Assembly (NCBI GenBank): GCA_016292015.1
Contig: JAEEZY010000019.1
Location: 61,415-93,414 of the forward strand
DNA from: Bacteroidales bacterium
Lineage (GTDB): Bacteria; Bacteroidota; Bacteroidia; Bacteroidales; P3
Direction of reading: 5' to 3'
DNA: 32,000 nt
Part shown: positions 2,680-27,410 of the stretch, piece after piece
How the letters are laid out: every line of letters begins with the position of its first letter
Numbering within the stretch: the first letter of the stretch is position 1
Translations under genes and position numbers: made by a program
Notes under the pieces: generated by a model
What the model was told of the DNA's origin: nothing
Database searches by the model: none
The model's input: the letters and a program-made list of their open reading frames with translations, nothing else

Positions 2680-3726
2680 ATGAAATACTCCCGAAATAAG
2701 ATCAACATCTCCGGTAAGGCCCTCTTGGCAGGACCCGATACAGGATTTCCATACACCGACGCAGGTCTTGTCGTTGATGATTGGCGCCGGCTCCACATGG
2801 TTCCGCTCGAGGAGTTAGTGTCCGAAGTGACGCGCCTGCTTGCCGATGCTGGAGTGTCGGCCGCCTTCTCTTCCCATCGCCTCAAGCGAATGACCTCCAT
2901 CGTGGCCAAGCTACGTCACAACCCAGGGATGGGGCTTGGAGGTCTGCAGGATATCGGAGGGGCCCGTTTTGTGTTCGAGGATATGACCTCATTACGGCAG
3001 GCGCAGAATGTGGTTGCGGAAGCGAGTTTTAGCCATTTTCTTCCCGACAGGGAACCGTACGACTATGTGCAGACACCCAAAGAGAGTGGCTATAGGAGTA
3101 TCCATTTTGCCTATAAGTATGTCAGTGACGATACCGACTATGATGGACTTAGGGTTGAGCTGCAGCTCCGAACGCGGTTGCAGCACGATTGGGCCATGGC
3201 CGTTGAGACGGCCGAACTCATCTCCCAGTCGTCGCTTAAGGCCAGTCTTGGCGACCAGAACTGGTTAGAGTTCTTCAAGCTGTGCAGTGCTGTCTTTGCG
3301 CAGAAGGAGTCGATGCCCGTAGCCGAGGCATACAGAGAGTTTACGGAAAGAGACTATTGTGAGAGGTATGCGCAGCTGGAGCAGCAGTATAAGTTTATGG
3401 ATCAGCTGAAAGCACTTGTGAGTGCGGTGAAGATAACCGAAGAGCATACGTTGAAGGAAGGGTATGCCGTGATTTTCATACAGTTTTTAGACAAGAGAGT
3501 CCAGTTGAGGCATTTTAATACGGGAGAGTTGGAGAAGGCTACGGACTATTATTCCGAAGTGGAGAAGACCGTGAATGATGAGAATTCGGCAGTTGTCCTT
3601 GTGTCAGTCTCCGACATGCAAGAGCTCCAGGAAGCCTATCCCAGCTATTTCTTGAATTCAGGCGAGTTCATCGCCGCACTGGATGATTTTCAGCGAGCCT
3701 GCCGCATAAAAGGATACATCAAGTAG
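2680..3726 (+). CDS. RelA/SpoT-domain (small alarmone synthetase / toxSAS-like) protein with an uncharacterised C-terminal domain of about 150 aa
   Basis: 348 aa. Synthetase-fold signature in the expected order: HRLKRMTSIVAKL, LQDIGGARFVF, PKESGYRSIHFAYKY, VELQLRTRLQHDWAMAVE. The N-terminal KYSRNKINISGKAL and W-R-x-x-H helix region is typical of stand-alone SAS/toxSAS proteins. There is no hydrolase (HD) domain and no adjacent partner ORF. Confidence 0.8.
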   Translation: MKYSRNKINISGKALLAGPDTGFPYTDAGLVVDDWRRLHMVPLEELVSEVTRLLADAGVSAAFSSHRLKRMTSIVAKLRHNPGMGLGGLQDIGGARFVFEDMTSLRQAQNVVAEASFSHFLPDREPYDYVQTPKESGYRSIHFAYKYVSDDTDYDGLRVELQLRTRLQHDWAMAVETAELISQSSLKASLGDQNWLEFFKLCSAVFAQKESMPVAEAYREFTERDYCERYAQLEQQYKFMDQLKALVSAVKITEEHTLKEGYAVIFIQFLDKRVQLRHFNTGELEKATDYYSEVEKTVNDENSAVVLVSVSDMQELQEAYPSYFLNSGEFIAALDDFQRACRIKGYIK

Positions 3727-5170: not shown

Positions 5171-5196
5171 TCAAGAATTAGAGAATTTGAGAATTG
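5171..5196 (-). repeat. Imperfect inverted copy of the gagaatt-type element, immediately upstream of the GxxExxY gene
   Basis: tcaagaattagagaatttgagaattg. Its reverse complement caattctcaaattctctaattcttga is a permuted version of the 24-mer at 5608-5631. Confidence 0.6.
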
Positions 5197-5199
5197 TTG

Positions 5200-5604
5200 A
5201 TGGCTTTACTATATCCGGAACTAAGCAAAAGAATTCTGGGAATTGCGATGCAGTTGCATCGTGAAATGGGTTGCGGGTTTAAGGAAAAGGTGTATCAGGA
5301 TGCCTTTGAAGTACTCCTCAAGGAGAATAACATAAACTATGAACGCGAAAAGCATATCGACCTCAAGTTTCATGGGGTAAAACTGGAACACGATTTCTTC
5401 TATGACTTCCTTATTGATAATAAGATAGGGGTGGAGTTGAAGGCAGTGTCGGAAATAGTTGGAGAGTTTGAGGCTCAGATAATCAACTACCTGCATGTGA
5501 GCAATCACAAGCTTGGTTTGTTGCTGAATTTTGGTACCACGAGTCTGGAATACAAATGGTATCCCAACGAGTGGCACTACAGACAATGCGCAAGCATTGG
5601 TTGA
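5200..5604 (+). CDS. GxxExxY family protein (PD-(D/E)XK-like small protein common in polysaccharide loci)
   Basis: About 134 aa counted from the ATG at 5200 (the ORF track starts at TTG 5194). Motifs GCGFKEKVYQDA (the GxxExxY signature), DFLIDNKIGVELKAV and KLGLLLNFG. GC looks lower than in the flanking wecB and wecC. Confidence 0.8.
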   Translation: MALLYPELSKRILGIAMQLHREMGCGFKEKVYQDAFEVLLKENNINYEREKHIDLKFHGVKLEHDFFYDFLIDNKIGVELKAVSEIVGEFEAQIINYLHVSNHKLGLLLNFGTTSLEYKWYPNEWHYRQCASIG

Positions 5605-7129: not shown

Positions 7130-8656
7130 ATGCAGATACTAGATTGTACCTTTCGTGATGGTGGTTACTACACAGATTGGGATTTCAATGAGGATATTGT
7201 ACGCACCTATTTGGAGGGAGTAAACAATCTTCCCATTGATTATATTGAATTGGGGTACCGTAATAACCCAGAGAAAGAGTATCTGGGTAAGTTTGGCTAC
7301 ACTCCGGTATACCTTCTCAAGCAAGTTCGTGAGTTGTCAAAGAAGAAGCTCGCAGTGATGCTGAACGAGAAGAACACAAAGGTTGAAGACCTTCAGAATT
7401 TGACAGAACCAATCAAAGGATTGGTGGATATGATTCGCTTGGCCGTTGATCCCAAGAATCTTCTGCGAGCTATTAACTTGGCTAAGGCTATCAAGACTCA
7501 AGGATTCGAGGTGGGCTTCAACATTATGTATATGTCTAAATGGGAACAATATGAAGAGTTATATGAAAAGCTGAGTTCCCTTAACGGAGTTGTAGATATC
7601 TTGAATATGGTTGACTCCTTTGGAGGTATCATGCCCAATGAGGTCACTGCCATGGTGGGGAAACTTCGTGGTATCGTTACATGTAAGATAGGTTTTCATG
7701 GTCATAATAACTTGGAGATGGCGTTAGCAAACACCTTGGCTGCAATCAATAGTGGTGTGGATTCCGTCGATGCAACCATTCTTGGTATGGGGCGAGGAGC
7801 AGGAAATTTGAACACGGAGTTGCTCCTTACTTACCTGAACAAAGATGGTCTTGGAGTGGATTTTAATGCCTTGAGTGATGTTATCACAGCATTTCAACCT
7901 CTATACGAAACTTATAGATGGGGAACACAGTTGCCTTATATGATTTCCGGTGCTAATTCGCTGCTACAGAGAGAAGTAATGGCATTGGTAACAAATCGTG
8001 TTTATTCTTTTGATAGTATAGTAAGAGGTGTGCAAAACAAGAAGGATGGGATTGTGGATAATGCCAAATATCCTTTGCTTGAAAAAGCTGAATTTGATGA
8101 CGTGATTATCATCGGTGGAGGGGAATCACCTGTAGATCATTTAGAAGGCATTACCAACTTCATTGCTAAGAAAAAGAATATTGCTCTTGTGTTTGCAACA
8201 GCCAGACACGCAGGTAAGTTTATTGATATAAATGTACCTCAGTATTATTGCTTATTGGGAAGAGAAGCCAAACGCCTTAGAGCTAATGTGAAAGCAGAAC
8301 AGTTTAAGGCTAAGTGCATTTTACCACCATATCCACGCAAACTTGGAACGGATGTTCCGTCTTTTGCAGAAAAAGCAACTTACGAATTGCCCAGGATAGA
8401 ATTTACAACAGAGTTTCAAGACTCTTGTACAACACTGGCCATCCAGACTGCCTTGAATATCAGCAAGGGAAACATTTACATTGTTGGTTACGACGGCTAT
8501 CCTGGGAGTGTGCTTTCTGAAAAGGAAGTTGCTTTAAGCAACGAAAATATGGCTTTACTACAGGATTATGAGAAATACACTGGCAAGAAGTTGATGTCGT
8601 TGACACCCTCTTTATATCCTGAATTAGAAATAGTGTCATTATATCAATTCATATAA
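7130..8656 (+). CDS. HMGL-like / DRE-TIM aldolase-domain protein with an extra C-terminal domain of about 200 aa
   Basis: 508 aa. The N-terminus ILDCTFRDGGY, together with later HGHNNLEMALANTLAAI and GMGRGAGN, is typical of pyruvate-carboxyltransferase / 4-hydroxy-2-oxovalerate-aldolase-type TIM barrels. The C-terminal region (VIIIGGGES ... IYIVGYDGY) loosely resembles the MptE/DUF115-like pattern of the ORF at 22145. Confidence 0.7.
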   Translation: MQILDCTFRDGGYYTDWDFNEDIVRTYLEGVNNLPIDYIELGYRNNPEKEYLGKFGYTPVYLLKQVRELSKKKLAVMLNEKNTKVEDLQNLTEPIKGLVDMIRLAVDPKNLLRAINLAKAIKTQGFEVGFNIMYMSKWEQYEELYEKLSSLNGVVDILNMVDSFGGIMPNEVTAMVGKLRGIVTCKIGFHGHNNLEMALANTLAAINSGVDSVDATILGMGRGAGNLNTELLLTYLNKDGLGVDFNALSDVITAFQPLYETYRWGTQLPYMISGANSLLQREVMALVTNRVYSFDSIVRGVQNKKDGIVDNAKYPLLEKAEFDDVIIIGGGESPVDHLEGITNFIAKKKNIALVFATARHAGKFIDINVPQYYCLLGREAKRLRANVKAEQFKAKCILPPYPRKLGTDVPSFAEKATYELPRIEFTTEFQDSCTTLAIQTALNISKGNIYIVGYDGYPGSVLSEKEVALSNENMALLQDYEKYTGKKLMSLTPSLYPELEIVSLYQFI

Positions 8657-9352
8657 ATGATGAAAGAAAAAGTGTCTTTCTTCCTTCCAACACGTAAGGG
8701 AAGCGAAAGGGTAAAGGATAAGAATACCAAGCCTTTCGCTGGAATAGAGGGTGGATTGGTAGAGAATAAAGTAAAGCAACTGCTGGAATCACGTCTCATT
8801 GATGAGATTATTTTCTCTTCCAATGATGAAGTTTGTATGGAAGTTGCTTCGAAGTATAAAGACAGTCGTTTAAGAATCATCAAGCGCCCAACGGAATTGT
8901 GCTTAAGTACAACAAACCTTCAGGACCTGATTTGTTACGTGCCAACCGTTACGGATGCAGAGCATATCCTTTGGGGGCATGTGACAACTCCGCTCTGCGG
9001 CGCAGATCAGTATGATTCTGGTATTAAGTTGTACTTTGACAAACTTAATGAGGGTTATGATTCCTTGGTGGGAGTGACAGAATTGAAGAATTTCCTTTTG
9101 AACAAGGATGGTAAACTGATAAATAACACCACAGATATACCTTGGCCCAGAACACAGGATTTGGAGGCCCTTTACCCCATTAACCATACAATGTTCATTG
9201 CAAAGCGTGAAGTCTATACCAAGAAAAAGAACCGAATTGGAGAAAAACCACTGCTGTATGTCATGGATGAACTTCATTCTTTTGATATTGACTGGCCTAA
9301 TGACTTTGTAATAGCTGAGATTATGTATAATAACCTATACGGAACCAAGTAA
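8657..9352 (+). CDS. Cytidylyltransferase of the CMP-NeuAc/CMP-Kdo synthetase (CTP_transf_3, SpsF-like) family
   Basis: 231 aa. The N-terminal FLPTRKGSERVKDKNTKPF motif corresponds to the P-loop-like (A/L)P(A/T)RxGSxxxxxKN signature of acylneuraminate cytidylyltransferases. The start abuts the aldolase stop. Confidence 0.75.
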   Translation: MMKEKVSFFLPTRKGSERVKDKNTKPFAGIEGGLVENKVKQLLESRLIDEIIFSSNDEVCMEVASKYKDSRLRIIKRPTELCLSTTNLQDLICYVPTVTDAEHILWGHVTTPLCGADQYDSGIKLYFDKLNEGYDSLVGVTELKNFLLNKDGKLINNTTDIPWPRTQDLEALYPINHTMFIAKREVYTKKKNRIGEKPLLYVMDELHSFDIDWPNDFVIAEIMYNNLYGTK

Positions 9353-9353
9353 G

Positions 9354-10391
9354 ATGACAAAAGTAGTTACCTTTGGAGAAATTATGGTGCGACTTGGAGC
9401 GCCTGGATATCTCAAGCTTATACAAACTGACAAGTTTGATGTCGGCTATGCTGGAGCAGAGGCTAATGTGGCGGTCTCGCTGGCCAATTATGGTGTTGAG
9501 ACGGATTATATCACCTGTTTACCTGACAATCCAATCGCTGAACGTTGCATTATGGATTTACGGGGACACAAAGTTGGCGTTGACCATATTCACCGCAGTG
9601 GCAAGCGCATGGGTATCCTTTATTTGGAAACAGGTAGTAACGCCAGACCCTCTAAAGTTTACTATGATCGAGAGTACAGTGCCATTGCAACTGTTGAACC
9701 CGGCTCTTTTGACTGGAAAGAAATCCTTAAGGATGCAGAGTGGTTTCACTGGACGGGTATCACACCGGCCCTTTCTGAGAATGCTGCAGATGAGTGTTTG
9801 AAAGCCATTAAGACAGCAAACGGGTTGGGTGTAATTGTGAGCTGTGATATCAATCATCGTGGTAATCTTTGGAAGTACGGAAAGAAGGCATCTGATGTGA
9901 TGCCTGAGATGGTGGCATGTTCTGACATAATCCTTGGCAATGAAGAAGATTGTGAGAAGGTTTTTGGCATTAAACCCAAGGACTTTGATGCGACAAAGAC
10001 CAATGGCAATGTGGATCAGAGCATTTTCCTAAGTGTTTGCCAGCAGATGATGGAACGATTCCCCCGTTGTAAAAAAATGGTGGTGACGCTCCGAGGGGCA
10101 ATCAATGCCAACCATAATACATGGGGTGGAGTCCTTTATAACGGTCAAGAACTGATGGAGTCTCGTCGCTATGATATTACAGATATCGTAGATAGAGTAG
10201 GAGGAGGGGACTCTTTTATGGGAGGGCTCATCTTTGGCATGCTGCATTATCAAGATGACCGTAAGGCATTGGAGTTTGCTACGGCGGCCAGCTGCTTGAA
10301 GCATACTTTGAAAGGAGATTATAATTGGGTCACTATACAAGATGTTGAAAACCTGCTGGGCGGTGAAGTGAGTGGAAGAGTAAAAAGATAA
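9354..10391 (+). CDS. PfkB-family sugar kinase, 2-dehydro-3-deoxygluconokinase (KdgK)-like
   Basis: 345 aa. The N-terminus VVTFGEIMVRL ... GAEANVAVSLANYG and the C-terminal DRVGGGDSFMGGLIFG motif are typical of ribokinase/KdgK-family proteins. Confidence 0.8.
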   Translation: MTKVVTFGEIMVRLGAPGYLKLIQTDKFDVGYAGAEANVAVSLANYGVETDYITCLPDNPIAERCIMDLRGHKVGVDHIHRSGKRMGILYLETGSNARPSKVYYDREYSAIATVEPGSFDWKEILKDAEWFHWTGITPALSENAADECLKAIKTANGLGVIVSCDINHRGNLWKYGKKASDVMPEMVACSDIILGNEEDCEKVFGIKPKDFDATKTNGNVDQSIFLSVCQQMMERFPRCKKMVVTLRGAINANHNTWGGVLYNGQELMESRRYDITDIVDRVGGGDSFMGGLIFGMLHYQDDRKALEFATAASCLKHTLKGDYNWVTIQDVENLLGGEVSGRVKR

Positions 10392-11339: not shown

Positions 11340-11345
11340 TTGTTT

Positions 11346-12455
11346 ATGTCAGAGAAACAAATAACTGTCACTTCGCCGTTGTTGCCTGACCTCGACGAGT
11401 TTAATGAGATGCTCAAAGAAATCTGGGCAAGCAAATGGATTACCAATATGGGACAATTTCATCAACAGTTGGAAAAAGAACTATGTCAGTATCTGAAAGT
11501 GCCTTTCATTAGTCTTTTCACAAATGGTACGTTACCGCTGTTGACCGCATTACAAGCTCTGCATATTACAGGTGAGGTTATAACCACGCCATATAGCTTT
11601 GTTGCAACCACTCATAGCATTTGGTGGAATGGTTGTCGCCCGGTATTTGTGGATATCGAGGAGGAGACTTGCGGCATTGACCCTGATAAGATTGAGGCAG
11701 CAATAACCCCCAAGACAACAGCAATCATGCCTGTCAGTTGCTATGGCAAGCCATGCAAGATGGACGAGATTCAAGCCATAGCCGACAAGTATGGCTTGAA
11801 GGTTATTCATGATGCAGCCCATGCCTTTGGTGTGGAAGTGGATGGTGAAAGTTGGGCAAGTAAAGGTGATATGATTTCGCTGTCATTCCATGCCACTAAG
11901 GTTTACAATACACTTGAAGGAGGGGCACTTGTGGTGAAGGATGAGGCCACCAAGAAACGAATCGACTTCTTGAAGAATTTTGGCTTCGCAGGGGAGACAG
12001 AAGTTGTCGCGCCAGGTATTAACAGCAAGATGGATGAAGTGCGTGCGGCATACGGATTACTTAACTTGAAGCAGGTGGATGAGGCCATTGAGAAGCGTCG
12101 TCAAGTGGCTGTGAAATACCGTAATGCATTGCGAAATGTGCCAGGTATTCGTTTCTTCGATGATATGCCCGGAGTGCGACATAATTATAGTTATTTCCCC
12201 ATCTTTATCAATGCCGAGGAGTATGGTCAGACACGAGATGAACTGTACTTCAAGATGCGTGAGGCCAATGTATTAGGTCGTCGATATTTCTATCCGCTGA
12301 TAAGTACCTTCAGTACCTATCGTAGCTTGCCAAGTGCCGGTGCAGAGAATCTGCCCGTGGCCACCAAGGTCGCCAATGAAGTCATCTGCCTTCCGATGCA
12401 CCATGAACTAAGTCAGAATGATTTGGAAAGAACCATAGATATAATACTGAAATGA
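11346..12455 (+). CDS. DegT/DnrJ/EryC1-family PLP aminotransferase, dTDP-4-amino-4,6-dideoxyhexose synthase (WecE/VioA-like)
   Basis: About 369 aa counted from the ATG at 11346 (the track starts at TTG 11340). The PLP-lysine motif SLSFHATK resembles WecE SFHETK. No 3,4-ketoisomerase gene is present, which favours a 4-amino product. Confidence 0.85.
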   Translation: MSEKQITVTSPLLPDLDEFNEMLKEIWASKWITNMGQFHQQLEKELCQYLKVPFISLFTNGTLPLLTALQALHITGEVITTPYSFVATTHSIWWNGCRPVFVDIEEETCGIDPDKIEAAITPKTTAIMPVSCYGKPCKMDEIQAIADKYGLKVIHDAAHAFGVEVDGESWASKGDMISLSFHATKVYNTLEGGALVVKDEATKKRIDFLKNFGFAGETEVVAPGINSKMDEVRAAYGLLNLKQVDEAIEKRRQVAVKYRNALRNVPGIRFFDDMPGVRHNYSYFPIFINAEEYGQTRDELYFKMREANVLGRRYFYPLISTFSTYRSLPSAGAENLPVATKVANEVICLPMHHELSQNDLERTIDIILK

Positions 12456-13096
12456 AACATTTAATAATTATTGGGGCATCTGGTTTCTCTCGTGATATGT
12501 ATTATGTGGTAACACAAGCTATTGGATATTTGCAAACTTATGATGTCAAGGGTTTTTTGGTACATGAAAAAGAATATTTAAACTCGCTTGATGCCTATAA
12601 AGATTACCCTCCTATGCTTGGAACTATATATGATTACGAAATAGAAAACGACGACGTTTTCATTATAGCACTTGGCGATGTAAGCGTTAAATCGGAAATT
12701 GGAGAATACATGAAATCGAAAGGTGCCATATTCCAAACAATAATTCATAAGGATGCCCAACTTCGAAATAACGTAAAAATTGGCGCTGGCTGCATTATTG
12801 AAAGCCATGCACATATTGGGTCTGAAGTGACAATAGGAGAAAATTGTTTGATTCAAGCATTTGCATGTATAGCTCATGACTGCGAAGTGGGTGATTATAC
12901 CAGAGTAGATGTGAGGTGTTTGTTAACAGGAAGGTCAAAAGTGGGGAAGAGCGTTACCATTCATTCAAACGCCATAATCAATCAGAAAGTTATTGTTGAA
13001 GATAACGCTACTGTAGCAGCGTTAAGTTTTGTTATAAGGAATGTAAAAGCAGGAACCACTGTTATGGGCAACCCTGCAAAACGATTAGAATATTAA
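12452..13096 (+). CDS. NeuD/PglD-family left-handed beta-helix sugar N-acyltransferase
   Basis: 214 aa. N-terminal LIIIGASGFSRD Rossmann-like motif, then C-terminal hexapeptide repeats (IGAGCIIESHAHIGSEVTIGENCLI...). ATGA overlap with the aminotransferase gene. Confidence 0.8.
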   Translation: MKHLIIIGASGFSRDMYYVVTQAIGYLQTYDVKGFLVHEKEYLNSLDAYKDYPPMLGTIYDYEIENDDVFIIALGDVSVKSEIGEYMKSKGAIFQTIIHKDAQLRNNVKIGAGCIIESHAHIGSEVTIGENCLIQAFACIAHDCEVGDYTRVDVRCLLTGRSKVGKSVTIHSNAIINQKVIVEDNATVAALSFVIRNVKAGTTVMGNPAKRLEY

Positions 13097-13099
13097 ATT

Positions 13100-14050
13100 A
13101 TGAGTAAAGCATTTATCTTCCCTGGTCAAGGCTGCCAGAAGGAGGGAATGGGTGGTGATTTGTATGCTCAGTTCCCAAAAGCCAAAGAGTTGTTTGAGCG
13201 TGCTAATGATTTCCTTGGTTATAAGATTACCGACGTGATGTTTCACGGTTCGGAAGAGGAACTGATGGAAACCAAAAATACCCAACCCTCAGTGTTTTTA
13301 TATGAGACTATTCTCGCCATGTGTCAGGATTATGTGAAGCCTGATTGCGTTGCTGGTCACTCACTTGGTGAATTTGCCGCTTTGGTTATTGCTGGTTCCA
13401 TTACTTTTGAGGAAGGCTTGAAACTGGTTTTGAATCGAGCATTGATCGGTCAAAAGGCATCAGATGAAGCTCCTGTCAAGACAGGTATGGGTGCTGTAAT
13501 AGGACTTCCAGACGAGTATGTTGAGAAACGCATCAAAGAGATTTGGGAAGAAGTTGGCGAACCGCTTTATTTTGCCAATTACAACGGTCCCGGTCAGGTG
13601 GTTATCTCTGGTTCTCGCAAAGCGGTGCGTGTTGCATGTAAAGCCTTTATGAAGGAAGGTGCAAAGAAAGCTGTGCCTCTGGCTATTGGCGGTTCATTCC
13701 ACACTCCTTTTATGGATGAGGCACGTGAAGAATTAGGTGCTATTATAAAGGAGGTTGTCTTCAAACCCGCTTCTATTCCTGTTTATCAATGTGTAGATGC
13801 ACTGCCGCATACAGACCCTGAAGAGATTCGTGCTAATCTGATTCAACATATTACGCATCCTGTTCTTTGGACGGCAATGACGCACAATATGGCAAAGGAT
13901 GGCGTAACTGAGTTCTATGAGGTTGGAACAGATGATACTTTGGAAAAGATAGTACGCCGCATGTATCCAAACCTGCACCAGCAGTCACTGCTTGATGTTC
14001 CGACATACGCAGGTAAGATTAAGAATTTTAAAGTTGTAAAAGAAGGATAA
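13100..14050 (+). CDS. ACP S-malonyltransferase (FabD-like acyltransferase)
   Basis: 316 aa. Motifs FIFPGQGCQ, nucleophile elbow AGHSLGEFAAL, and NYNGPGQVVISG. Confidence 0.88.
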   Translation: MSKAFIFPGQGCQKEGMGGDLYAQFPKAKELFERANDFLGYKITDVMFHGSEEELMETKNTQPSVFLYETILAMCQDYVKPDCVAGHSLGEFAALVIAGSITFEEGLKLVLNRALIGQKASDEAPVKTGMGAVIGLPDEYVEKRIKEIWEEVGEPLYFANYNGPGQVVISGSRKAVRVACKAFMKEGAKKAVPLAIGGSFHTPFMDEAREELGAIIKEVVFKPASIPVYQCVDALPHTDPEEIRANLIQHITHPVLWTAMTHNMAKDGVTEFYEVGTDDTLEKIVRRMYPNLHQQSLLDVPTYAGKIKNFKVVKEG

Positions 14051-14052
14051 GT

Positions 14053-14460
14053 ATTGATATTTCACATATTGAACATATCGGTATAGACGTTAAGAGTATT
14101 GAGGAGTCACTCCCATACCATGAAACAGTGCTTGGCTTCAAGTGCTATGCAATAGAAGAAGTAGCCGACCAGAAAGTAAAGGCAGTTTTCTTAAAAATGG
14201 GTGAAACCAAGCTGGAATTACTGGAACCATCTTCTGAGGAAAGTCCAAAAGCTAAGTTCCTTGAAAATAGAGGCTCTGGTATCCATCATACAGCATTTGC
14301 CGTGTAAGATGGCGTTGCTATTGCACTTTGAGAGTGTAAGAACAAAAAAGTAAGGCTAATGGATTTTGAACACCGAAATTGTGCTGAATGGCTGAATGTC
14401 GCTTTCCAAAATCCAAAGTCAACACAATGAGTTCTTACAGAACTTTGTGAAAAACAATAA
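14053..14460 (+). pseudogene. Methylmalonyl-CoA epimerase / VOC (glyoxalase-fold) pseudogene
   Basis: A single reading frame reads IDISHIEHIGIDVKSIEESLPYHETVLGF...KAVFLKMGETKLELLEPSSEESPKAKFLENRGSGIHHTAFAV*DGVAIAL*ES..KKVRLMDFE...VAFQNPKSTQ*VLTEL. There are in-frame stops at 14305 (TAA), 14329 (TGA) and 14428 (TGA), no ATG start, and no frameshift. Confidence 0.8.
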
Positions 14461-14516
14461 ATCAAGATAATTTTTGAGTTCAATAATTTAAGTTCAACAT
14501 TTAAAATTTTAGAATT

Positions 14517-14744
14517 ATGGAATTAAATGAATTTGTAACAAGATTTGCTGAGGAGTTCGATGAGACTCCCGCTGAACAGTTCAAGGCTGACACCGTGTTT
14601 AAGTCACTCGACGAGTGGGGTTCACTGACCGCACTTTCTATCATTGCAATGGTAGATGAGGAGTTTGAAAAGCGCATTACTGGCGCAGACCTCCGTTCTG
14701 TCAACACACTGGAGGAATTGTACAACTTAATTCAGAGCAAATAA
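14517..14744 (+). CDS. Acyl carrier protein (phosphopantetheine-binding)
   Basis: 75 aa and acidic. LDEWGSLTALSIIAMV matches the (D/G)SL phosphopantetheine serine helix-II pattern. It lies among fatty-acid-synthase-type genes. Confidence 0.75.
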   Translation: MELNEFVTRFAEEFDETPAEQFKADTVFKSLDEWGSLTALSIIAMVDEEFEKRITGADLRSVNTLEELYNLIQSK

Positions 14745-15502
14745 TGGCTTACAATCCATTTTCATTAGAAGGTAAGACCATTCTCGTAACGGGAGCCTCG
14801 TCCGGAATCGGACGAGGCATCGCCGCCGAGTGCTCCAAGATGGGGGCCAAGATGGTCATCAATGGACGTAATGTTGAACGATTGAATGAAACAATGTCCA
14901 TGCTTGAAGGAGAAGGTCATGTGGCGATTGCTGCAGATCTTTCAAAACAAGAAGACATAGACAGCCTTGTTGCACAATGTCCTGCAATCAATGGTGTCGT
15001 TCACAGTGCGGGTATCCCCAAAATATGTGGGGTTAAACATATTGAGCGCAGTTTATTGGAAGAAATAGTCAATGTCAATGAAATCGCTCCGATTCTTTTG
15101 ACATCTGGTCTGCTAAAAAAGAAAAAACTTCAAAAGAAGTCGTCTATCATTTTCATTGCCTCCATATCTGGAGTTTGTGTCGCTAATGTTGGCGAAGCAC
15201 CATATTCAACTACAAAGGGTGGACTTGCAGGCTTTACGAAGGGAGCAGCTTATGAGTTAGCTGCACAGGGTACGAGAGTCAATACAATTTGTCCAGCTTT
15301 GGTGCCTACAAGTATTCTTGGACTGTCAAACGAAATGTTCTCGGAACAACAGTTGAAAGATACTATGTACGGTCGATATCCTCTTAAACGAGTCGGCACT
15401 CCTGAAGATATTGCCAATGGTGCTATTTATCTTCTTTCAGATGCATCAAGTTGGGTGACTGGTATTAATTTAATAATCGATGGTGGATATACATTAGTAT
15501 AA
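14744..15502 (+). CDS. SDR-family 3-oxoacyl-ACP reductase (FabG-like), copy 1
   Basis: 252 aa. Motifs TGASSGIGRGIA and YSTTKGG (Y-x3-K). TAATG overlap with the ACP gene. Confidence 0.85.
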   Translation: MAYNPFSLEGKTILVTGASSGIGRGIAAECSKMGAKMVINGRNVERLNETMSMLEGEGHVAIAADLSKQEDIDSLVAQCPAINGVVHSAGIPKICGVKHIERSLLEEIVNVNEIAPILLTSGLLKKKKLQKKSSIIFIASISGVCVANVGEAPYSTTKGGLAGFTKGAAYELAAQGTRVNTICPALVPTSILGLSNEMFSEQQLKDTMYGRYPLKRVGTPEDIANGAIYLLSDASSWVTGINLIIDGGYTLV

Positions 15503-15503
15503 T

Positions 15504-16556
15504 ATGGCATTAGTAAAATTTAATAATATAGGAATTAAGGCCTTAAGTGCAACTGTTCCTCAGAATGTGGTTAAAACACGTTCACTTACGGATTACTATA
15601 CCCCAGAGGCAATAGAAAAATTTATTGAAGCAACAGGTATAGAAGAGCGTAGATTGGTCCAGAGAGACCAGTGTGCGTCAGATCTCTGTTATAAATCAGC
15701 TTGTCAAATTTTTGGTGAGACGGATATCAAACGTGAGGATATTGACGCACTATTCTTTGTTAGTCAAACCCCAGATTACAAGTCTCCTGGGACTTCCATC
15801 ATTCTCCAAGATAAATTGGGCTTGAAGAAATCTACTCTTGTTTATGATGTTAATATGTCATGTTCTGGTTTTATACACGGCATGTTGATGGCATACAGTT
15901 TCCTTCAATCCCCATCTTTCAACAATGTTATGGTGATGGTTGGAGATACTCTGTCAAAGATTACATCTGTACAGGATAAAGGAACAGGAATGCTTTTGGG
16001 CGATGCTGGCATATGCTGTGTTATTGGTAAGGGCGAACAGTATGGTGAGAGTTTCTTTTCAATGAATACGGATGGCTCTAATATTCAGTCTGTTATTTTG
16101 CCTGCTGGCGGTAGTAGAATCCCGAGTTCAGAAGAGACGCTTAAGGTGAAGGAATATGAAGATGGCAGTATTCGTAGTTTGGAACATGTCATTATGGTTG
16201 GTCCTGATGTCTTTAGCTTCGCAATTTCAGAACTGCCTCGTGACATTAAGCGACTATTAGAGTATGCAGGAAAGTCTATTGATGAAGTTGATAAATATGC
16301 ATTCCATCAGGCTAATGACTTTATGACTAATTATATTGTCAAGAAGTCTAAGGCAAATCCTGACAAACTTTTGCACTCTATTCAGAAGTATGGAAATACA
16401 GCAGGTACTTCCATTCCTTTGTGTATGGTACACAATCGAGAAGAAATAAAGTCAAACGATATAATTTTAATGAATGCGATTGGAGCTGGTTTCGCTTATG
16501 GAACAGTGCTTTTAAATATCGCTGATTGCAAGATTTTGAAACGACAGGAACTGTGA
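15504..16556 (+). CDS. 3-oxoacyl-ACP synthase III (KAS III / FabH-like), copy 1
   Basis: 350 aa. Cys-His-Asn triad contexts NMSCSGF, FHQAN and YGNTAGTSIP. Confidence 0.85.
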   Translation: MALVKFNNIGIKALSATVPQNVVKTRSLTDYYTPEAIEKFIEATGIEERRLVQRDQCASDLCYKSACQIFGETDIKREDIDALFFVSQTPDYKSPGTSIILQDKLGLKKSTLVYDVNMSCSGFIHGMLMAYSFLQSPSFNNVMVMVGDTLSKITSVQDKGTGMLLGDAGICCVIGKGEQYGESFFSMNTDGSNIQSVILPAGGSRIPSSEETLKVKEYEDGSIRSLEHVIMVGPDVFSFAISELPRDIKRLLEYAGKSIDEVDKYAFHQANDFMTNYIVKKSKANPDKLLHSIQKYGNTAGTSIPLCMVHNREEIKSNDIILMNAIGAGFAYGTVLLNIADCKILKRQEL

Positions 16557-17557
16557 TAAAAGTATATATAAAAGCGATTTCATACAATCTACCTGAGAAC
16601 ATCCTTACCAATGAGATGATTGCAGAAGAATTCCCAGAGTGGACTGTTGAGAAAATAGACAAGAAAATTGGAATAAGGAAGCGTCACGTGACAGCAGATG
16701 GTGAAACGGCAAGTGACCTTGCTGTTGGGGCAGCAGAAAAACTCTTTACAGAAAACGGTTATGACCGCAATCAGATAGACTATCTGATATTTGTTACACA
16801 AAGCCCTGATTACCATCTGCCCACAAATGCTTGTACCATTCAAACACGCTTGGGATTATCAAATCGACTGACAGCCTTTGATGTCAATCTTGGTTGCAAT
16901 GGTTTTGTGGCAGGACTATCACTTGCTAAAGCAGTTATAGTTGCTGGTCAAGCAAAGAATGTGTTGCTGCTTACAGGTGAAACATACTCAAAGTACATGC
17001 ACGAGCGTGACAAGAGTAACCGTACTATTTTTGGAGATGGAGCGGCTGCTACGTTGGTAAGTACCGAGGGTATAGCAGAAGTAGGCGAGTTTGTGATAGG
17101 CACTGATGGCATTGGTGCTGAGAACCTAATAGTGAAGACAGGAGGTGCAAGACATCCACAACCTGCCGGTGACTTAAAGTATGACGATTTTGGAAATCCA
17201 CGTTCTTCAGATAACCTCTACATGGATGGCCCTGCCATTCTCAATTACTCTCTTGATAGCATTCCTCAGTTAGTTGCAGATGTGCTTGATAAGAATGGCG
17301 TTACGATGGAAGACATAGACCTTCATGTTTATCATCAGGCTAATACCTTCCTTGCCAATCTCGAACGCAGGAAATTAAGAATTCCTGCAGAAAGGTATTA
17401 TTGTAATATTGAGAACTTCGGTAATACCGTGTCCTCAACCATTCCTATAGCTCTCTGTGAAGCTGTAAAAGAAGGGCGTATTCAGAAAGGAACAAAAGTA
17501 TTATCGGTAGCCCAAGGTCTTGGATACACATGGGGCGGTATGGTATTGTTTTTCTAA
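16553..17557 (+). CDS. 3-oxoacyl-ACP synthase III (KAS III / FabH-like), copy 2
   Basis: Triad contexts NLGCNGF, YHQAN and FGNTVSSTIP. The start is uncertain: GTG 16553 (GTGA overlap, giving VIKVYIKAISY) or TTG 16526 as in the ORF track. Confidence 0.8.
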   Translation: MIKVYIKAISYNLPENILTNEMIAEEFPEWTVEKIDKKIGIRKRHVTADGETASDLAVGAAEKLFTENGYDRNQIDYLIFVTQSPDYHLPTNACTIQTRLGLSNRLTAFDVNLGCNGFVAGLSLAKAVIVAGQAKNVLLLTGETYSKYMHERDKSNRTIFGDGAAATLVSTEGIAEVGEFVIGTDGIGAENLIVKTGGARHPQPAGDLKYDDFGNPRSSDNLYMDGPAILNYSLDSIPQLVADVLDKNGVTMEDIDLHVYHQANTFLANLERRKLRIPAERYYCNIENFGNTVSSTIPIALCEAVKEGRIQKGTKVLSVAQGLGYTWGGMVLFF

Positions 17558-17571
17558 AATAAAATAGTTCA

Positions 17572-18321
17572 ATGAATCTAAATGGAAAGAAGTTCCTAAT
17601 AACAGGAGCGGCATCAGGATTAGGTAGAGCCACATCATTAATGCTATCCTCATACGGAGCAGAATTGTTACTTATAGACAGAAATGTAGAGGATTTAAGG
17701 CAGGTCGCACAAATGACGAGTGGTGTGGGAAATGCACTCGTTTGCGACTTGCTTACATGCGAGTGGGGGGTGGTAAAATCATGGATATTAGATAGATGTA
17801 AAGATGTGGGGCTCGATGGGTTTGTCCATTTTGCAGGTGTACCATGTACGGTACCCATTAAGCATCTTTCTGTTGAGAGATATGAGAAAGTCAATAAAGT
17901 GAACGTCTCTTCAATTATTGAAATGACCAAGATCTTTATCTCAAAGAATATATTGTCAAGAAATAATCCCAGCGTAGTATTAATATCTTCAGTTTCTGGT
18001 CTTGTGGGATTTACCCCCAATGTGGCGTATTCAATGACAAAAGGCGCAATAATCAGCATGACACGAGCATTAGCAATAGAACTTGCATCCAAAGGAATAA
18101 GGGTCAATTGTGTGGCACCAGGTTTTATCAAGACACCATTAATGGAACAGACAGCGGATATGCTTGGCGATGATTATGAAAGCAATCTATCTGCAATGCA
18201 TCCTTTAGGGCTAGGAACAACTGTCGATGTGGCAAATGCAGTGGCATTTCTTCTTTCCGACTATTCTAAATGGATTACTGGAGTTGTACTCCCTGTAGAT
18301 GGAGGATATACGGCACAATAA
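17572..18321 (+). CDS. SDR-family oxidoreductase (ketoreductase-like), copy 2
   Basis: 249 aa. Motifs TGAASGLGRA and YSMTKGA (Y-x3-K). Confidence 0.82.
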   Translation: MNLNGKKFLITGAASGLGRATSLMLSSYGAELLLIDRNVEDLRQVAQMTSGVGNALVCDLLTCEWGVVKSWILDRCKDVGLDGFVHFAGVPCTVPIKHLSVERYEKVNKVNVSSIIEMTKIFISKNILSRNNPSVVLISSVSGLVGFTPNVAYSMTKGAIISMTRALAIELASKGIRVNCVAPGFIKTPLMEQTADMLGDDYESNLSAMHPLGLGTTVDVANAVAFLLSDYSKWITGVVLPVDGGYTAQ

Positions 18322-18322
18322 A

Positions 18323-18958
18323 ATGATTAAAGTAGAAAGAGTAATAAATGAGTTGATGACTTCGAACTGCTATGTTGTATATGATGAAGATACCCTAAGG
18401 TGTCTCGTCATAGATCCTGCCAGTGAGAAGTCCCTTCGGGAGATAGAGTATATAGAAAAGAACGGATTGACGCTAGACTATATTCTCTTAACCCATGAGC
18501 ATACAGACCACACATGGGGTGTTAACGCTTTGCTTGGGAAATATCCTTCATCAAAGGTGATTTGCTCAGAACTATGCAAAGAGGCTTTGCCAAGAGAGGC
18601 TAAAGCCTATTTCCAATTCTATTATGATGACCCAGATTACATATACAATGTCGAACGGGTCGATGTTACTACAGAGGAATTGAATTGGCACATGGAGTGG
18701 GTAGGGCATAGCATTAAGTTTATCGCTACACCAGGTCATAGTCCCGGCTCTGTTTGCATAGCTATTGATACTATGGTTTTTGGAGGAGATACCCTGATGC
18801 CATTCAAGCCGTTTATCAAAAAACGTAATGGTGGGTCAGTTGAGCAGTTTCAGGAGAGCGTAAAGCAAATGGTAGAAGCCTTTCCAGCGGATACAATAGT
18901 ATATCCAGGACATGGAGAAAGTGGGCAAATGAAGGATTATAATAATAACATTAAATAA
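18323..18958 (+). CDS. MBL-fold metallo-hydrolase (glyoxalase II-like, candidate thioesterase)
   Basis: About 211 aa counted from the ATG at 18323. HxHxDH motif LTHEHTDHTWG, plus a later PGHSPGS and a distal PGHG. Confidence 0.8.
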   Translation: MIKVERVINELMTSNCYVVYDEDTLRCLVIDPASEKSLREIEYIEKNGLTLDYILLTHEHTDHTWGVNALLGKYPSSKVICSELCKEALPREAKAYFQFYYDDPDYIYNVERVDVTTEELNWHMEWVGHSIKFIATPGHSPGSVCIAIDTMVFGGDTLMPFKPFIKKRNGGSVEQFQESVKQMVEAFPADTIVYPGHGESGQMKDYNNNIK

Positions 18959-22144: not shown

Positions 22145-23029
22145 ATGTTCAAAAATATATATAACAGTTCTGCCTTTCTACAATGGATGTTCAGAAAGTC
22201 GTTTCTTTCCAGGGCGCTTCATAAGATATATCAATATTATGAATACATATCATTGAATCGACTGACAAAAAAGCAGGCAAAAGATGTTTCAAAACGTGCC
22301 AATGGCTACGATGACCCACGATATGCCAAATTAAAAGAACTTAAAGGGAAATATGCAGGGAAAAGATGCTTCATCACCTGTACTGGTCCAAGCCTTACGA
22401 TTAAAGACCTTGAGAAACTGAATGGTGAATATGTTTTTGGCATGAATTCCATCTGTTTGATTCATGATAAGACCGACTGGAAACCAGATTTTTTTGGAAT
22501 TCAAGATGTGAAGGTGTATGAAAAAGTGAAAGATAAGATGTTGGCTACGGACAACGGTCAAGTATTCGCTCCATACGCCTATTATGAACAGATGAATACG
22601 CCTGAGAACTGGATATATTTCCCCATGAGCTGGGCATATCATATATATGATAAGAAATATAAGGAAAAATATTTCGCAAAATTCAGCGGTGATTGCTATG
22701 AGACTGTTTACGATGGCTTTACCATTACTTATAGTATTATGCAGTTGGCATTCTATCTGGGCTTTGATGAATTATATCTGATAGGCGCAGATTGCACATA
22801 TTTGGGGCAGCAACAGCATTTTATTGAAACTGGGCATATGGTGTCCCAGAAAGACTCAGCCAAGGTGCAAGACAAGATGTTTGCTGTATATCATGAAGCC
22901 AAGGCCTATGCTGAAGCTCACGGATTGAAGATATACAATGCTACCAGGGGCGGTTTTCTTGAGATTTTCCAACGTGTTTCTCTTGAAGAGGTATTGTCTG
23001 ACAACCAAAAGAATAAGAATAGTTTATGA
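22145..23029 (+). CDS. MptE-like / DUF115 protein (Maf-like putative CMP-sugar-dependent glycosyltransferase)
   Basis: 294 aa. RCFITCTGPSL and ELYLIGADCTY follow the DUF115 layout. This is a family-level call made by eye only. Confidence 0.5.
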   Translation: MFKNIYNSSAFLQWMFRKSFLSRALHKIYQYYEYISLNRLTKKQAKDVSKRANGYDDPRYAKLKELKGKYAGKRCFITCTGPSLTIKDLEKLNGEYVFGMNSICLIHDKTDWKPDFFGIQDVKVYEKVKDKMLATDNGQVFAPYAYYEQMNTPENWIYFPMSWAYHIYDKKYKEKYFAKFSGDCYETVYDGFTITYSIMQLAFYLGFDELYLIGADCTYLGQQQHFIETGHMVSQKDSAKVQDKMFAVYHEAKAYAEAHGLKIYNATRGGFLEIFQRVSLEEVLSDNQKNKNSL

Positions 23030-25366: not shown

Positions 25367-26707
25367 ATGACAAAAGTAATTACATACGGCACATACGACC
25401 TGCTGCATCAGGGACATATTAATCTTTTGCGGAGTGCAAAGGAGTTGGGAGACTACTTAATAGTAGGCGTCACTAGTGATAGTTTCGACCGGGGGCGTGG
25501 AAAACTCAATGTGCGTAATAATGTGCTCGAGCGTGTAGAAGCCGTGAAGGCTACAGGTTTTGCCGATGAAGTTATCATTGAGGACTACCTTGGTCAGAAA
25601 ATTGACGATATCCAAAAATACGATGTTGATATATTCGCGATAGGTAGCGATTGGCTAGGGAAGTTTGATTATTTGAATGAGTATTGTAAAGTGGTATATC
25701 TTCCCAGGACAGAAGGGATCTCTTCCACAATGTTAAGGGCAGAGAACCAGAGTACATACCGTATCGGTATTATTGGCAGCGGACGTATAGCGCATCGTTT
25801 CGTTCCCGAAACGAAGGTGGTGAATGGGGCGGAGGTGACGGCAGTACTGAATCCTGACAAGGATAAAGCAGCGGCATTTGGCAAGGTCCACAGATTGGAT
25901 GCATTCTCTGATTTTGATGATTTTATCAAACTAATAGATGTAGTATATGTCGCTTCGCCGCATCTGACGCATTATGATTATGCTAAAAGTAGCTTATTGG
26001 CAGGAAAACATGTCTTGTGCGAAATACCATTTACACTTTCAAAAGATGAGGCACTCGAGCTCTATCGTCTGGCGGAAGAGAATAATCTAGTGTTGATGGA
26101 GGCAAGCAAAACTGCGTATTGCCCAGCATTTGGGCATATTATCACTTTGATAAAGAGTGGAATTATTGGCGATGTAGTGGACGTAAAGGCCTCTCTGAGT
26201 AAGATGGTGGAGCCTCCGACCCGCGAGTTAGATGCAATGCAGGCGGGTGGAGCAATAACTGAACATGCTCCACTTACGATTATGGCCATAGTAAGACTGT
26301 TGGGAATAGACTGGATAGATGTTGGTTTTCATACCAAGAAAGAGAAAGGTGTGGATATATATACCAAAGGCATCATCAACTATCCTCATGCTACTTCATC
26401 TTTTACTCTTGGTATTGGGGTTAAGACGGAAGGTAATTTGGTGATTTCTGGAACTAAGGGCTACGTTTATGTGCCTGCCCCCTGGTGGCTTACCAGCTAT
26501 TTTGAAGTGCGGTATGAAGACCAACGCAAGAATAAGAAATACTTCTATAGCTATGATGGTGAGGGATTGCGTTATGAGATTCAGGAATTTCTTTCTATGA
26601 TTGTTAATAACCGACGTAGCTGCTATAAACTTCGTCGTCGCGAAAGTGTGGCAATAGCAGAGATTATAGAGAAATACCGTAACGGTGAAAATGTGACTGA
26701 GATATGA
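25367..26707 (+). CDS. Fusion protein: TagD-like glycerol-3-phosphate cytidylyltransferase (N-terminal ~130 aa) plus Gfo/Idh/MocA oxidoreductase (C-terminal)
   Basis: 446 aa. The N-terminus YGTYDLLHQGHINLL ... IGSDW ... RTEGISST matches cytidylyltransferase HxGH and RTxGISTT motifs. From residue ~133, RIGIIGSGRIAHRF ... EIPF(T) ... is a Gfo/Idh/MocA Rossmann domain. The gene is preceded by the only sizeable gap (92 bp) in this part of the locus. Confidence 0.8.
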   Translation: MTKVITYGTYDLLHQGHINLLRSAKELGDYLIVGVTSDSFDRGRGKLNVRNNVLERVEAVKATGFADEVIIEDYLGQKIDDIQKYDVDIFAIGSDWLGKFDYLNEYCKVVYLPRTEGISSTMLRAENQSTYRIGIIGSGRIAHRFVPETKVVNGAEVTAVLNPDKDKAAAFGKVHRLDAFSDFDDFIKLIDVVYVASPHLTHYDYAKSSLLAGKHVLCEIPFTLSKDEALELYRLAEENNLVLMEASKTAYCPAFGHIITLIKSGIIGDVVDVKASLSKMVEPPTRELDAMQAGGAITEHAPLTIMAIVRLLGIDWIDVGFHTKKEKGVDIYTKGIINYPHATSSFTLGIGVKTEGNLVISGTKGYVYVPAPWWLTSYFEVRYEDQRKNKKYFYSYDGEGLRYEIQEFLSMIVNNRRSCYKLRRRESVAIAEIIEKYRNGENVTEI

Positions 26708-27399: not shown

Positions 27400-27410
27400 T
27401 TGGTTGTATA

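Follow-up and report, generated by a model that had tools for sequence, protein, structure and literature searches.

This report deals with three abutting genes in a stretch of 32,000 nucleotides from a Bacteroidales bacterium (GenBank assembly GCA_016292015.1, contig JAEEZY010000019.1, positions 61,415 to 93,414 of the forward strand). The whole stretch, called the window in the following, is a capsular-polysaccharide locus of Bacteroidales type (gut or rumen) with its genes on one strand. The first open reading frame (ORF) of the trio, named ALD here (7130-8656, + strand, 508 amino acids), encodes a class II aldolase barrel followed by a C-terminal domain resembling the Maf and MptE proteins. 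ORF2 (8657-9352, + strand, 231 amino acids) encodes a cytidylyltransferase of a NeuA/PseF-like subfamily within the family of synthetases for cytidine monophosphate (CMP)-activated ulosonic acids, and ORF3 (9354-10391, + strand, 345 amino acids) a PfkB kinase (PF00294) that resembles KdgK, the 2-keto-3-deoxygluconate (KDG) kinase. The gaps between the three ORFs are 0 bp and 1 bp. Further downstream, a DUF115/MptE-like protein (22145-23029, + strand, PF01973) is encoded, a candidate glycosyltransferase for a CMP-activated acid.

An initial annotation of the window had placed the trio at exactly these positions and had proposed an unconventional route to a CMP-activated keto-deoxy acid. We followed this up by comparative genomics and by profile, fold, and model comparisons. 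The family assignments made at that time for the aldolase domain and its additional C-terminal domain, for the cytidylyltransferase, the kinase, and the DUF115 protein were all borne out by the searches described below.

Survey of related loci

Two scans were carried out, one seeded on ALD and one on the kinase. For the ALD-seeded scan, one genome per species was used, resulting in 60 loci of which 59 contained ALD; ORFs were clustered and searched with hidden Markov models. For the kinase-seeded scan of metagenomes, the 80 closest relatives of ORF3 (78-90% identical) were collected, two of whose loci (L077 and L082) could not be read. A heuristic procedure was used to call the ORFs of the loci. 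Each locus covers 5-6 kb per side, so that counts of transferase genes are lower bounds, and neither scan can detect the other's absences beyond its own seed.

The aldolase barrel of ALD

The N-terminal domain of ALD (7130..8050, + strand) is a DRE-TIM (HMGL-like) barrel of the class II aldolase type with a helical linker. In profile searches, ALD matched PF00682 (HMGL-like) with 89.2 bits at a cutoff of 29, and this family was also matched by the divergent 525-amino-acid and Leisingera forms of ALD described below. The best NCBIfam matches were 4-hydroxy-2-oxovalerate aldolases, with scores below the curated cutoffs for DmpG-type enzymes (TIGR03217, 97.7 vs 286 bits; NF006049, 111.3 vs 229 bits). 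Among known structures, PDB entry 3dxi matched residues 2-308 at E=2.5e-127 with 61% identity over the barrel. This entry, a 'putative aldolase' with no function in its deposit title, is the N-terminal domain of BVU_2661 of Bacteroides vulgatus and a true member of the ALD family, of which the N-terminal domain only was solved. DmpG (1nvm) matched the barrel at E=2e-16. A Foldseek search with the AlphaFold model of full-length ALD (pLDDT 81.6), which like the model of the C-terminal domain was built from a shallow input alignment (51 and 18 sequences at >=62% identity), returned 3dxi first, followed by the DmpG-type aldolases 4lrs and 1nvm.

DmpG-type enzymes are pyruvate aldolases that join pyruvate enolate and an aldehyde to a 4-hydroxy-2-oxo acid, a product with the skeleton of a 3-deoxy-2-ulosonic acid. 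R9, D10, H190, and H192 of ALD align with R17, D18, H200, and H202 of DmpG, the pyruvate-binding arginine and the metal ligands. These four residues are invariant in 29 diverse ALD homologues (down to 41% identity), as are the motifs RDGGYY, HGHNN, and GMGRGAGN and the residues R103 and R222; R44 is conserved to over 90%. With 63% mean column identity in these homologues, the barrel is the best-conserved part of ALD, and because its metal and pyruvate site is invariant as well, it is probably catalytic. DmpG, BphI, and HsaF (1nvm, 4lrs, 4jn6) are the best characterised relatives of the domain and have the Arg, the Asp-His-His, and the GMG-GAGN elements in common with it. However, DmpG-type aldolases are only ~20% identical to ALD, which has a Tyr in place of a His, carries the additional Maf-like domain, and occurs without a DmpF partner or an aromatic-degradation context. 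Neither a DmpF-type acylating aldehyde dehydrogenase nor a meta-cleavage context was found among the window ORFs, and the neighbours are capsule genes; aromatic catabolism of the DmpFG type was rejected on these grounds and by the scores below the cutoffs.

The Maf/MptE-like domain of ALD

The last ~200 residues of ALD (8045..8656, + strand) form a Rossmann-type domain of the Maf/MptE-like (DUF115) superfamily. The domain of the window's ALD itself stays below the PF01973 cutoff (E=0.05, 13.9 vs 34.6 bits), and the profile was matched in 25 of 32 diverse ALD homologues (best E=7.9e-8). A comparison with the window's DUF115 protein by hhalign gave a probability of 45% (E=2e-4). In a Foldseek search with the domain-only AlphaFold model (pLDDT 87.6), the Maf glycosyltransferase 5mu5 was the sole match below E 1e-3 (E=2.9e-5, TM 0.61), followed by archaeal MptE (8sd5, probability 0.94), SteA, and the GT29 sialyltransferase ST6GALNAC2. 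A profile search of PDB sequences for a match to 5mu5 gave noise alone, and the link to Maf is thus based on the Pfam matches in homologues and on the fold. Both agree with the likeness to DUF115 that had been noticed in the initial annotation.

Invariant motifs of the domain in the homologue alignment are GGG, GxE, G-DGY (GYDGY), and EN, while DS is nearly invariant. In Maf enzymes, an acidic residue, a Ser, and an Asp/Asn are essential, the latter two at a spacing of 23 (bioRxiv 10.1101/2020.06.03.131540); the catalytic acidic residues of 5mu5 are E324 and D415. The invariant E80...S133...D156 of ALD shows the same Ser-to-Asp spacing (23), as a match of patterns. Searching 1.84 billion representatives with the C-terminal domain alone matched 215 clusters; among the matches listed, the full-length ones have ~490-550 amino acids with the domain at ~310-515. 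This subfamily thus appears to be essentially always fused to an aldolase, and shorter matches look like gene fragments. Maf and the archaeal pyrophosphokinase MptE are therefore the closest folds, and theirs is also the family of the 22145-23029 protein, but the domain of ALD represents a separate subfamily, fused to an aldolase among the matches listed and without a detectable sequence match to 5mu5. Most likely it binds a nucleotide or a CMP-sugar, and this binding would serve feedback control or a transferase function. It may be a CMP-sugar feedback sensor acting on the first committed step, a transferase, or an MptE-like (pyro)phosphokinase.

Cytidylyltransferase and KdgK-like kinase

ORF2 exceeds the cutoff of PF02348 (CTP_transf_3) with 28.3 vs 22.6 bits. 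Its best NCBIfam match, PseF (TIGR03584), reached 59.9 bits and thus remained below the cutoff of 205.7; ORF2 stays far from every equivalog cutoff and belongs to a subfamily distinct from PseF. The best PDB matches were CMP-Neu5Ac synthetases (E~1e-7). Enzymes of the CTP_transf_3 family activate ulosonic acids as CMP-sugars (CMP-beta-ulosonic acids), a reaction that needs a cyclic hemiketal, so that the acid must be sugar-like and have at least 5-6 carbons. A PseF-like gene lies directly 3' of ALD in 29 of the 60 genome loci, whereas a KdsB-like enzyme is encoded instead in others. The KdsB-like cassette enzymes match CTP_transf_3 at E=9e-42, and all of them exceed the cutoff of the KDO-cytidylyltransferase subfamily NF009905. 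The picture given by the initial annotation has therefore to be amended: the cytidylyltransferase of the cassette is either PseF-like or KdsB-like.

ORF3 matches PF00294 (PfkB) with 111 bits and, over residues 3-345, the KDG kinase of Thermotoga maritima (TM0067, 2afb) at E=8.6e-89; both proteins are ~55% identical over the full length and have the PfkB motifs in common. Scores remained below the cutoffs of the KdgK equivalogs (NF041332, 213 vs 440; NF040938, 107 vs 400) and of NF041633 (461 vs 700), a model that also spans an aldolase half and is matched by ORF3 in its kinase half. While TM0067 is a catabolic enzyme, the kinase clade of the window is apparently attached to the ALD cassette in a biosynthetic context.

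Recurrence of the cassette

Altogether, ~60 species-level genomes of Bacteroidota and some Proteobacteria were seen to contain the cassette, as were many metagenome contigs from gut and rumen. A CTP_transf_3 gene adjoins ALD in 56 of the 59 genome loci, and the 3 exceptions end at a contig edge; chance does not account for this association. PseF-like enzymes occur in 32 and KdsB-like ones in 27 of the 59 loci, 3 of which have both types. A small HAD-IA hydrolase (PF13419) follows directly 3' of the cytidylyltransferase in 49/59 loci, whereas the kinase was found in one. In 130 neighbour clusters, the 25 most frequent families included none of the NeuB/KdsA type. Most of the ALD-seeded loci are from Bacteroidota (Flavobacteriia, Pedobacter, Prevotella, Alistipes), others from Burkholderiales, alphaproteobacteria, Balneolaceae, and Malaciobacter.

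The kinase-seeded scan gave the complementary view. All 65 loci with enough upstream DNA carry ALD upstream of the kinase, 59 of them also a cytidylyltransferase (PseF-like, KdsB-like, or both in one locus), and none a HAD gene. The other 15 loci are on contigs too short for ALD; where upstream DNA is present, it shows a cytidylyltransferase, except in L108, which has an acyltransferase there, as is found between cytidylyltransferase and kinase in L097 and L129. A catabolic context (Eda or hexuronate genes) was not found in any readable locus of the kinase clade. Because all 65 close-relative loci with enough upstream DNA have ALD, the kinase clade is dedicated to the ALD cassette and is not a housekeeping catabolic KdgK. 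The co-occurrence survey that the initial annotation had proposed as a check thus ties the cytidylyltransferase and the kinase to ALD, and it contradicts the possibility raised there that the kinase is a genuine catabolic KdgK.

Taken together, the ancestral module consists of aldolase, cytidylyltransferase, and HAD phosphatase, and only Bacteroidales of gut and rumen have the kinase in its stead, where it occupies the position of the HAD gene and is mutually exclusive with it. A tblastn search of the window with 48 cassette HADs gave no match. Nor was a NeuB/KdsA-type synthase (PF03102 or PF00793) found among the annotated window ORFs of >=150 amino acids, as had been stated in the initial annotation.

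The complete trio occurs in two further, unrelated capsule contexts with ALD homologues 72-73% identical to that of the window, giving at least 3 contexts in total. A 77% identical ALD homologue is accompanied by a cytidylyltransferase and DUF115, without kinase or HAD. A second ALD subfamily has 525 amino acids and 25-32% identity to the window's ALD (L130:2684-4261, L139:3414-4991, L148:3416-4993). It keeps the two-domain architecture, the motifs RDGGY, HSHNN, and GMGRGAGN, and the C-terminal G-DGY, and it is flanked by a KdsB-like cytidylyltransferase and a kinase of the window's clade. Hence, one kinase clade pairs with both ALD subfamilies and both cytidylyltransferase types. On Leisingera plasmids, ALD (26% identical to the window's), a KdsB-like gene, and a HAD gene follow each other in a capsule-type locus. 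An example is L154:8986-11988 on plasmid NZ_CP081095.1 of the marine alphaproteobacterium Leisingera caerulea, where the capsule locus is of the ABC-transporter type; RefSeq names the Leisingera cassette proteins generically, as 'aldolase catalytic domain-containing protein', '3-deoxy-manno-octulosonate cytidylyltransferase', and 'HAD family hydrolase'. On plasmids of Priestia and Paraburkholderia, aldolase homologues with a single domain stand in unrelated contexts and were uninformative.

Two kinds of additional genes were observed at the cassettes. Membrane O-acyltransferases (PF01757; L097:3937-5001, L129:2937-3920, L115:2399-3349) are encoded between cytidylyltransferase and kinase or directly after the kinase, which suggests that the acid is O-acylated in those capsules, like many sialic acids. 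Small ORFs of the '23S rRNA intervening sequence protein' family (PF05635) lie in or beside cassettes (L112:4579-4950, L114:1921-2292, L017:3264-3644).

Candidate transferases near the cassette

The window protein at 22145-23029 matches PF01973 with 50.8 bits (cutoff 34.6). Homologues of this DUF115 type (~260-280 amino acids) are encoded directly 3' of the kinase or the cytidylyltransferase in L071, L094, L107, L141-143, L149-153, and other loci. They follow the kinase directly in at least 12 loci and lie near the cassette in at least 15 loci overall, while one of the 59 ALD-seeded genome loci has such a gene. GT38-like, GT29-like, and Maf enzymes use CMP-ulosonic donors. Proteins like alpha-2,8-polysialyltransferases (PF07388, GT38-like) were found in 11/59 ALD genome loci; 4 further neighbour clusters match PF07388 (best E=9.6e-53), and such a gene directly follows the kinase in L002, L130, and L139. 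GT29 sialyltransferase-like proteins (PF00777) were found in 5/59 loci. In 42/59 genome loci, no separate sialyltransferase-like or DUF115 gene was present within 6 kb. Donors described for Maf enzymes are CMP-Pse, CMP-Leg, CMP-Neu5Ac, and CMP-Kdo (bioRxiv 10.1101/2020.06.03.131540).

Proposed pathway

On balance, we consider it probable that the trio is a portable cassette which would make a CMP-activated 3-deoxy-2-ulosonic acid for the capsule without a phosphoenolpyruvate (PEP)-dependent synthase of the NeuB/KdsA type. From the original proposal of a CMP-activated keto-deoxy acid route, comparative genomics supports the aldolase-based, NeuB/KdsA-independent character and the Maf-type transfer, but the kinase that had been included in it is not part of the ancestral module.

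In the first step, the metal-dependent, DmpG-like barrel of ALD would add pyruvate enolate to an aldehyde, for which a sugar phosphate of central metabolism, e.g., glyceraldehyde-3-phosphate (G3P), is the most economical choice; the result would be a 4-hydroxy-2-oxo acid, i.e., an ulosonic acid like KDG or its 6-phosphate (KDPG). The acceptor is probably a central metabolite (G3P, erythrose-4-phosphate, ribose-5-phosphate), because the cassette lacks an isomerase or epimerase for a special acceptor, and that a KdgK homologue was recruited suggests a KDG/KDPG-like acid of six carbons made from pyruvate and G3P. In the second step, the CTP_transf_3 enzyme would, as expected from its family, couple the anomeric O2 to CMP. 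In the third step, as the gene context suggests, a Maf/DUF115 enzyme (22145-23029 in the window) would transfer the sugar into the repeat unit; elsewhere, this could be the role of a polysialyltransferase-like or GT29-like enzyme.

The third cassette gene, HAD or kinase, would set the phosphorylation state. In the ancestral HAD module, condensation with a sugar phosphate would be followed by dephosphorylation and CMP activation. HAD and kinase never co-occur, in our preferred reading because their opposite actions on one acid would create a futile cycle. It is possible, but somewhat doubtful, that the kinase phosphorylates the terminal CH2OH of a KDG-like acid, either trapping the reversible aldol product or capturing free KDG-type acid, for which pectin degraders have a large catabolic pool, and that a phosphorylated form is delivered or passed through. 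We are cautious about this part because loci free of both kinase and HAD exist and a phosphorylated CMP-ulosonic acid has no known precedent. Alternatively, the kinase may serve salvage or recycling of the free acid, or the removal of competing KDG. In its most specific form, the proposal would be that the capsules of gut and rumen Bacteroidales carry a previously undescribed CMP-activated KDG-type hexulosonic acid bearing or passing through a terminal phosphate, which is made by ALD from pyruvate and G3P and/or captured by the kinase from catabolic KDG; the sister cassette with HAD of Bacteroidota at large and some Proteobacteria would lead to the unphosphorylated sugar, and the Maf-like domain would sense or transfer the CMP-sugar. 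We regard this full version as quite doubtful.

Several points weigh against the proposed pathway. The position of the catalytic His21 of DmpG is taken by Tyr13 in the alignment of ALD to 1nvm, and the chemistry of ALD may differ from that of DmpG because of this replacement. Pyruvate aldolases are reversible and mostly catabolic, and we know of no precedent for a phosphorylated CMP-ulosonic acid. The similarity of ORF2 to characterised enzymes is weak. The kinase step is difficult to place: some loci (L001, L071) lack both kinase and HAD, and since the cytidylyltransferase of L001 is nevertheless 80% identical to that of the window, the substrate of this enzyme can be made without the kinase. 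The seeding biased the samples of loci, which cover 5-6 kb per side, and we infer the whole mechanism, from enzyme activity and product to polysaccharide composition, from sequence.

Alternative explanations

The acid could also be supplied by housekeeping metabolism, as KDG from hexuronate catabolism, which the kinase or the HAD would make usable, or as Kdo. ALD would then not be the backbone synthase, but a Maf-like transferase or a CMP-sugar-binding regulator whose barrel modifies or binds the acid. KDG is abundant in pectin-degrading Bacteroidales, and the kinase is ~55% identical to a KDG kinase. A transferase role of ALD would also fit its C-terminal domain with the invariant Glu...Ser...Asp, spaced like the critical residues of Maf, and the 42/59 genome loci without a separate sialyltransferase-like or DUF115 gene within 6 kb. 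However, it is the barrel that is most conserved (63%), with an invariant metal and pyruvate site, which argues for catalysis, and the window as well as many other loci also have a separate DUF115 or polysialyltransferase-like transferase. The dedicated HAD in 49/59 loci fits a synthase with a phosphorylated product, and loci with ALD and cytidylyltransferase only exist as well. We regard a housekeeping origin of the acid as unlikely.

A different product of the barrel was considered too, namely an acid that is atypical or not a sugar at all and is CMP-activated as a substituent. It could be a short 4-hydroxy-2-oxo acid, a branched one with KDPG as enolate donor, or a Claisen-type product like those of isopropylmalate and homocitrate synthases. 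Class II pyruvate aldolases do accept other 2-oxo acid donors, acetyl-CoA-dependent Claisen synthases are among the weaker HMGL-like matches of ALD, and its RDGGYY is unlike the RDGSH of DmpG and the RDGEQ of the synthases. Yet profile and fold searches both match DmpG-type aldolases best, and not synthases, activation by CTP_transf_3 enzymes needs a cyclic hemiketal, the KdsB-like partners exceed the KDO-cytidylyltransferase subfamily cutoff, and the adjoining transferases belong to sialyltransferase-type and Maf families, all of which makes such an acid improbable. A phosphonate pathway, in which an HMGL-like FrbC-type synthase is combined with a cytidylyltransferase, was rejected: the best matches are aldolases rather than synthases, and no PEP-mutase-type family was found among the annotated window ORFs or the recurrent neighbour families. 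A literature search for this combination of synthase and cytidylyltransferase matched PMC8942020 alone.

We give next to no credit to an ordinary catabolic KDG module (KdgK and a non-orthologous KDPG aldolase) that merely lies inside capsule loci: although the kinase is strongly KdgK-like and kinase plus aldolase are the canonical pair of KDG degradation, fused in Bacteroidota (NF041633), the contexts of the 80 closest kinase relatives rule out a housekeeping KdgK, with no catabolic genes, ALD in 65/65 loci, a cytidylyltransferase in 59 of these, and often a DUF115 or polysialyltransferase-like gene thereafter, while the three genes move together between capsule loci that are otherwise unrelated, outside the gut a phosphatase instead of the kinase accompanies ALD, and the Maf-like domain of ALD has no role in catabolism.

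Comparison with known pathways

The proposed cassette is best compared with the pathways for Kdo (KdsA-KdsC-KdsB), for animal Neu5Ac (NANS-NANP-CMAS), and for Kdn of Bacteroides thetaiotaomicron (Kdn-9-P synthase, Kdn-9-P phosphatase, CMP-Kdn synthetase), in which transfer is performed by sialyltransferase-type, Kdo-transferase-type, or Maf-type enzymes. The ancestral cassette shares with them the sequence of condensation, HAD phosphatase, CTP_transf_3-type CMP-synthetase, and transfer, and about half of the ALD cassettes use a KdsB-subfamily enzyme like the Kdo pathway does. The differences concern the first and the third gene. In place of the PEP-dependent synthase of these pathways, the cassette has a DRE-TIM pyruvate-type aldolase fused to a Maf/MptE-like domain; its HAD is of the capped HAD-IA type and not of the KdsC type; and in the window, a kinase takes the place of the phosphatase. 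To our knowledge, a PEP-dependent synthase of the NeuB/KdsA type catalyses the first step of every characterised CMP-ulosonic route (Kdo, Kdn, Neu5Ac, Pse, Leg). What is new is an ulosonic-acid activation cassette whose synthase belongs to a new class and whose kinase form is without precedent, while its logic is of the known Kdo/Kdn/Neu5Ac kind.

Full-text literature searches returned no description of the cassette, the protein-cluster collection holds no names for its proteins, and a 2026 preprint on sialic-acid-active enzymes does not mention the ALD family. The earlier statement that the trio matches no characterised pathway agrees with these searches and with the RefSeq names. As possible leads on the product, lipopolysaccharide of Vibrio parahaemolyticus (O7/O12) is reported to contain hexulosonic acids, and an entry in the reference list of PMC10433991 reports 4-deoxy-2-hexulosonic acid for the E. 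coli K3 capsule.

Other genes of the locus

According to family matches, the remaining genes of the window comprise a GDP-mannose dehydratase-family gene, WecB, WecC, RmlA, an aminotransferase, a NeuD-type acyltransferase with its own set of acyl carrier protein (ACP) and KAS III, Wzx, Wzy, DUF115, GT56, and GT4 genes, LicD, an SDR, and a TagD-like/Gfo fusion.

A 348-amino-acid protein with a RelA/SpoT nucleotidyltransferase domain (2680-3726; PF04607, E=2e-14) is encoded between wecB and the GDP-mannose dehydratase-family gene. The 1.1 kb upstream of it (1548-2680) contain no + strand ORF of >=40 amino acids, and the arrangement recurs in L061 and L062. A small PD-(D/E)XK ORF (PDDEXK_3, 5194-5604) lies between wecB and wecC, with a second copy further upstream in the parent contigs (L061:2177-2587); these ORFs may be selfish or insertion-associated genes inside the operon.

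The sub-cluster at 11340-18958 contains a DesI/VioA-like aminotransferase, a NeuD/VioB-type acyltransferase, a FabD-like acyltransferase, two KAS III genes, an ACP of 75 amino acids (14517-14744, PF00550), two SDR genes, and a metallo-beta-lactamase-fold protein, and seems to equip a 4-amino-4,6-dideoxyhexose with an unusual N-acyl group. The start of the second KAS III gene (16526-17557) is uncertain: its TTG start overlaps the previous gene by 31 nt, and the call in the parent contig uses a later start, giving 334 instead of 343 amino acids.

At 25367-28157, a fusion protein of 446 amino acids joins a TagD-like glycerol-3-phosphate cytidylyltransferase domain to a Gfo/Idh/MocA oxidoreductase and is followed by an SDR and a LicD-family phosphotransferase; with these genes, the locus contains a further, separate polyol-phosphate branch with CDP activation. 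Between the LicD and the GT4 gene, an ORF of 347 amino acids (28807-29850) is without a Pfam or NCBIfam match.

Implications

Genome mining for 'sialic-acid-like' surface sugars relies on the NeuB/KdsA-type marker, and a cassette based on a pyruvate aldolase would, if the proposal is true, escape such surveys. It would represent a third, evolutionarily independent way to make sialic-acid-like sugars, would assign a function to the structural-genomics orphan 3dxi, and would supply a new aldolase, a new CMP-synthetase, and new Maf-like transferases for chemoenzymatic synthesis. The exchange of a phosphatase for a kinase is a clean, testable evolutionary puzzle. For the abundant gut commensals that carry the cassette, the proposal would mean an unrecognised acidic sugar on their capsules, with a bearing on phage receptors, immune recognition, and capsule typing.

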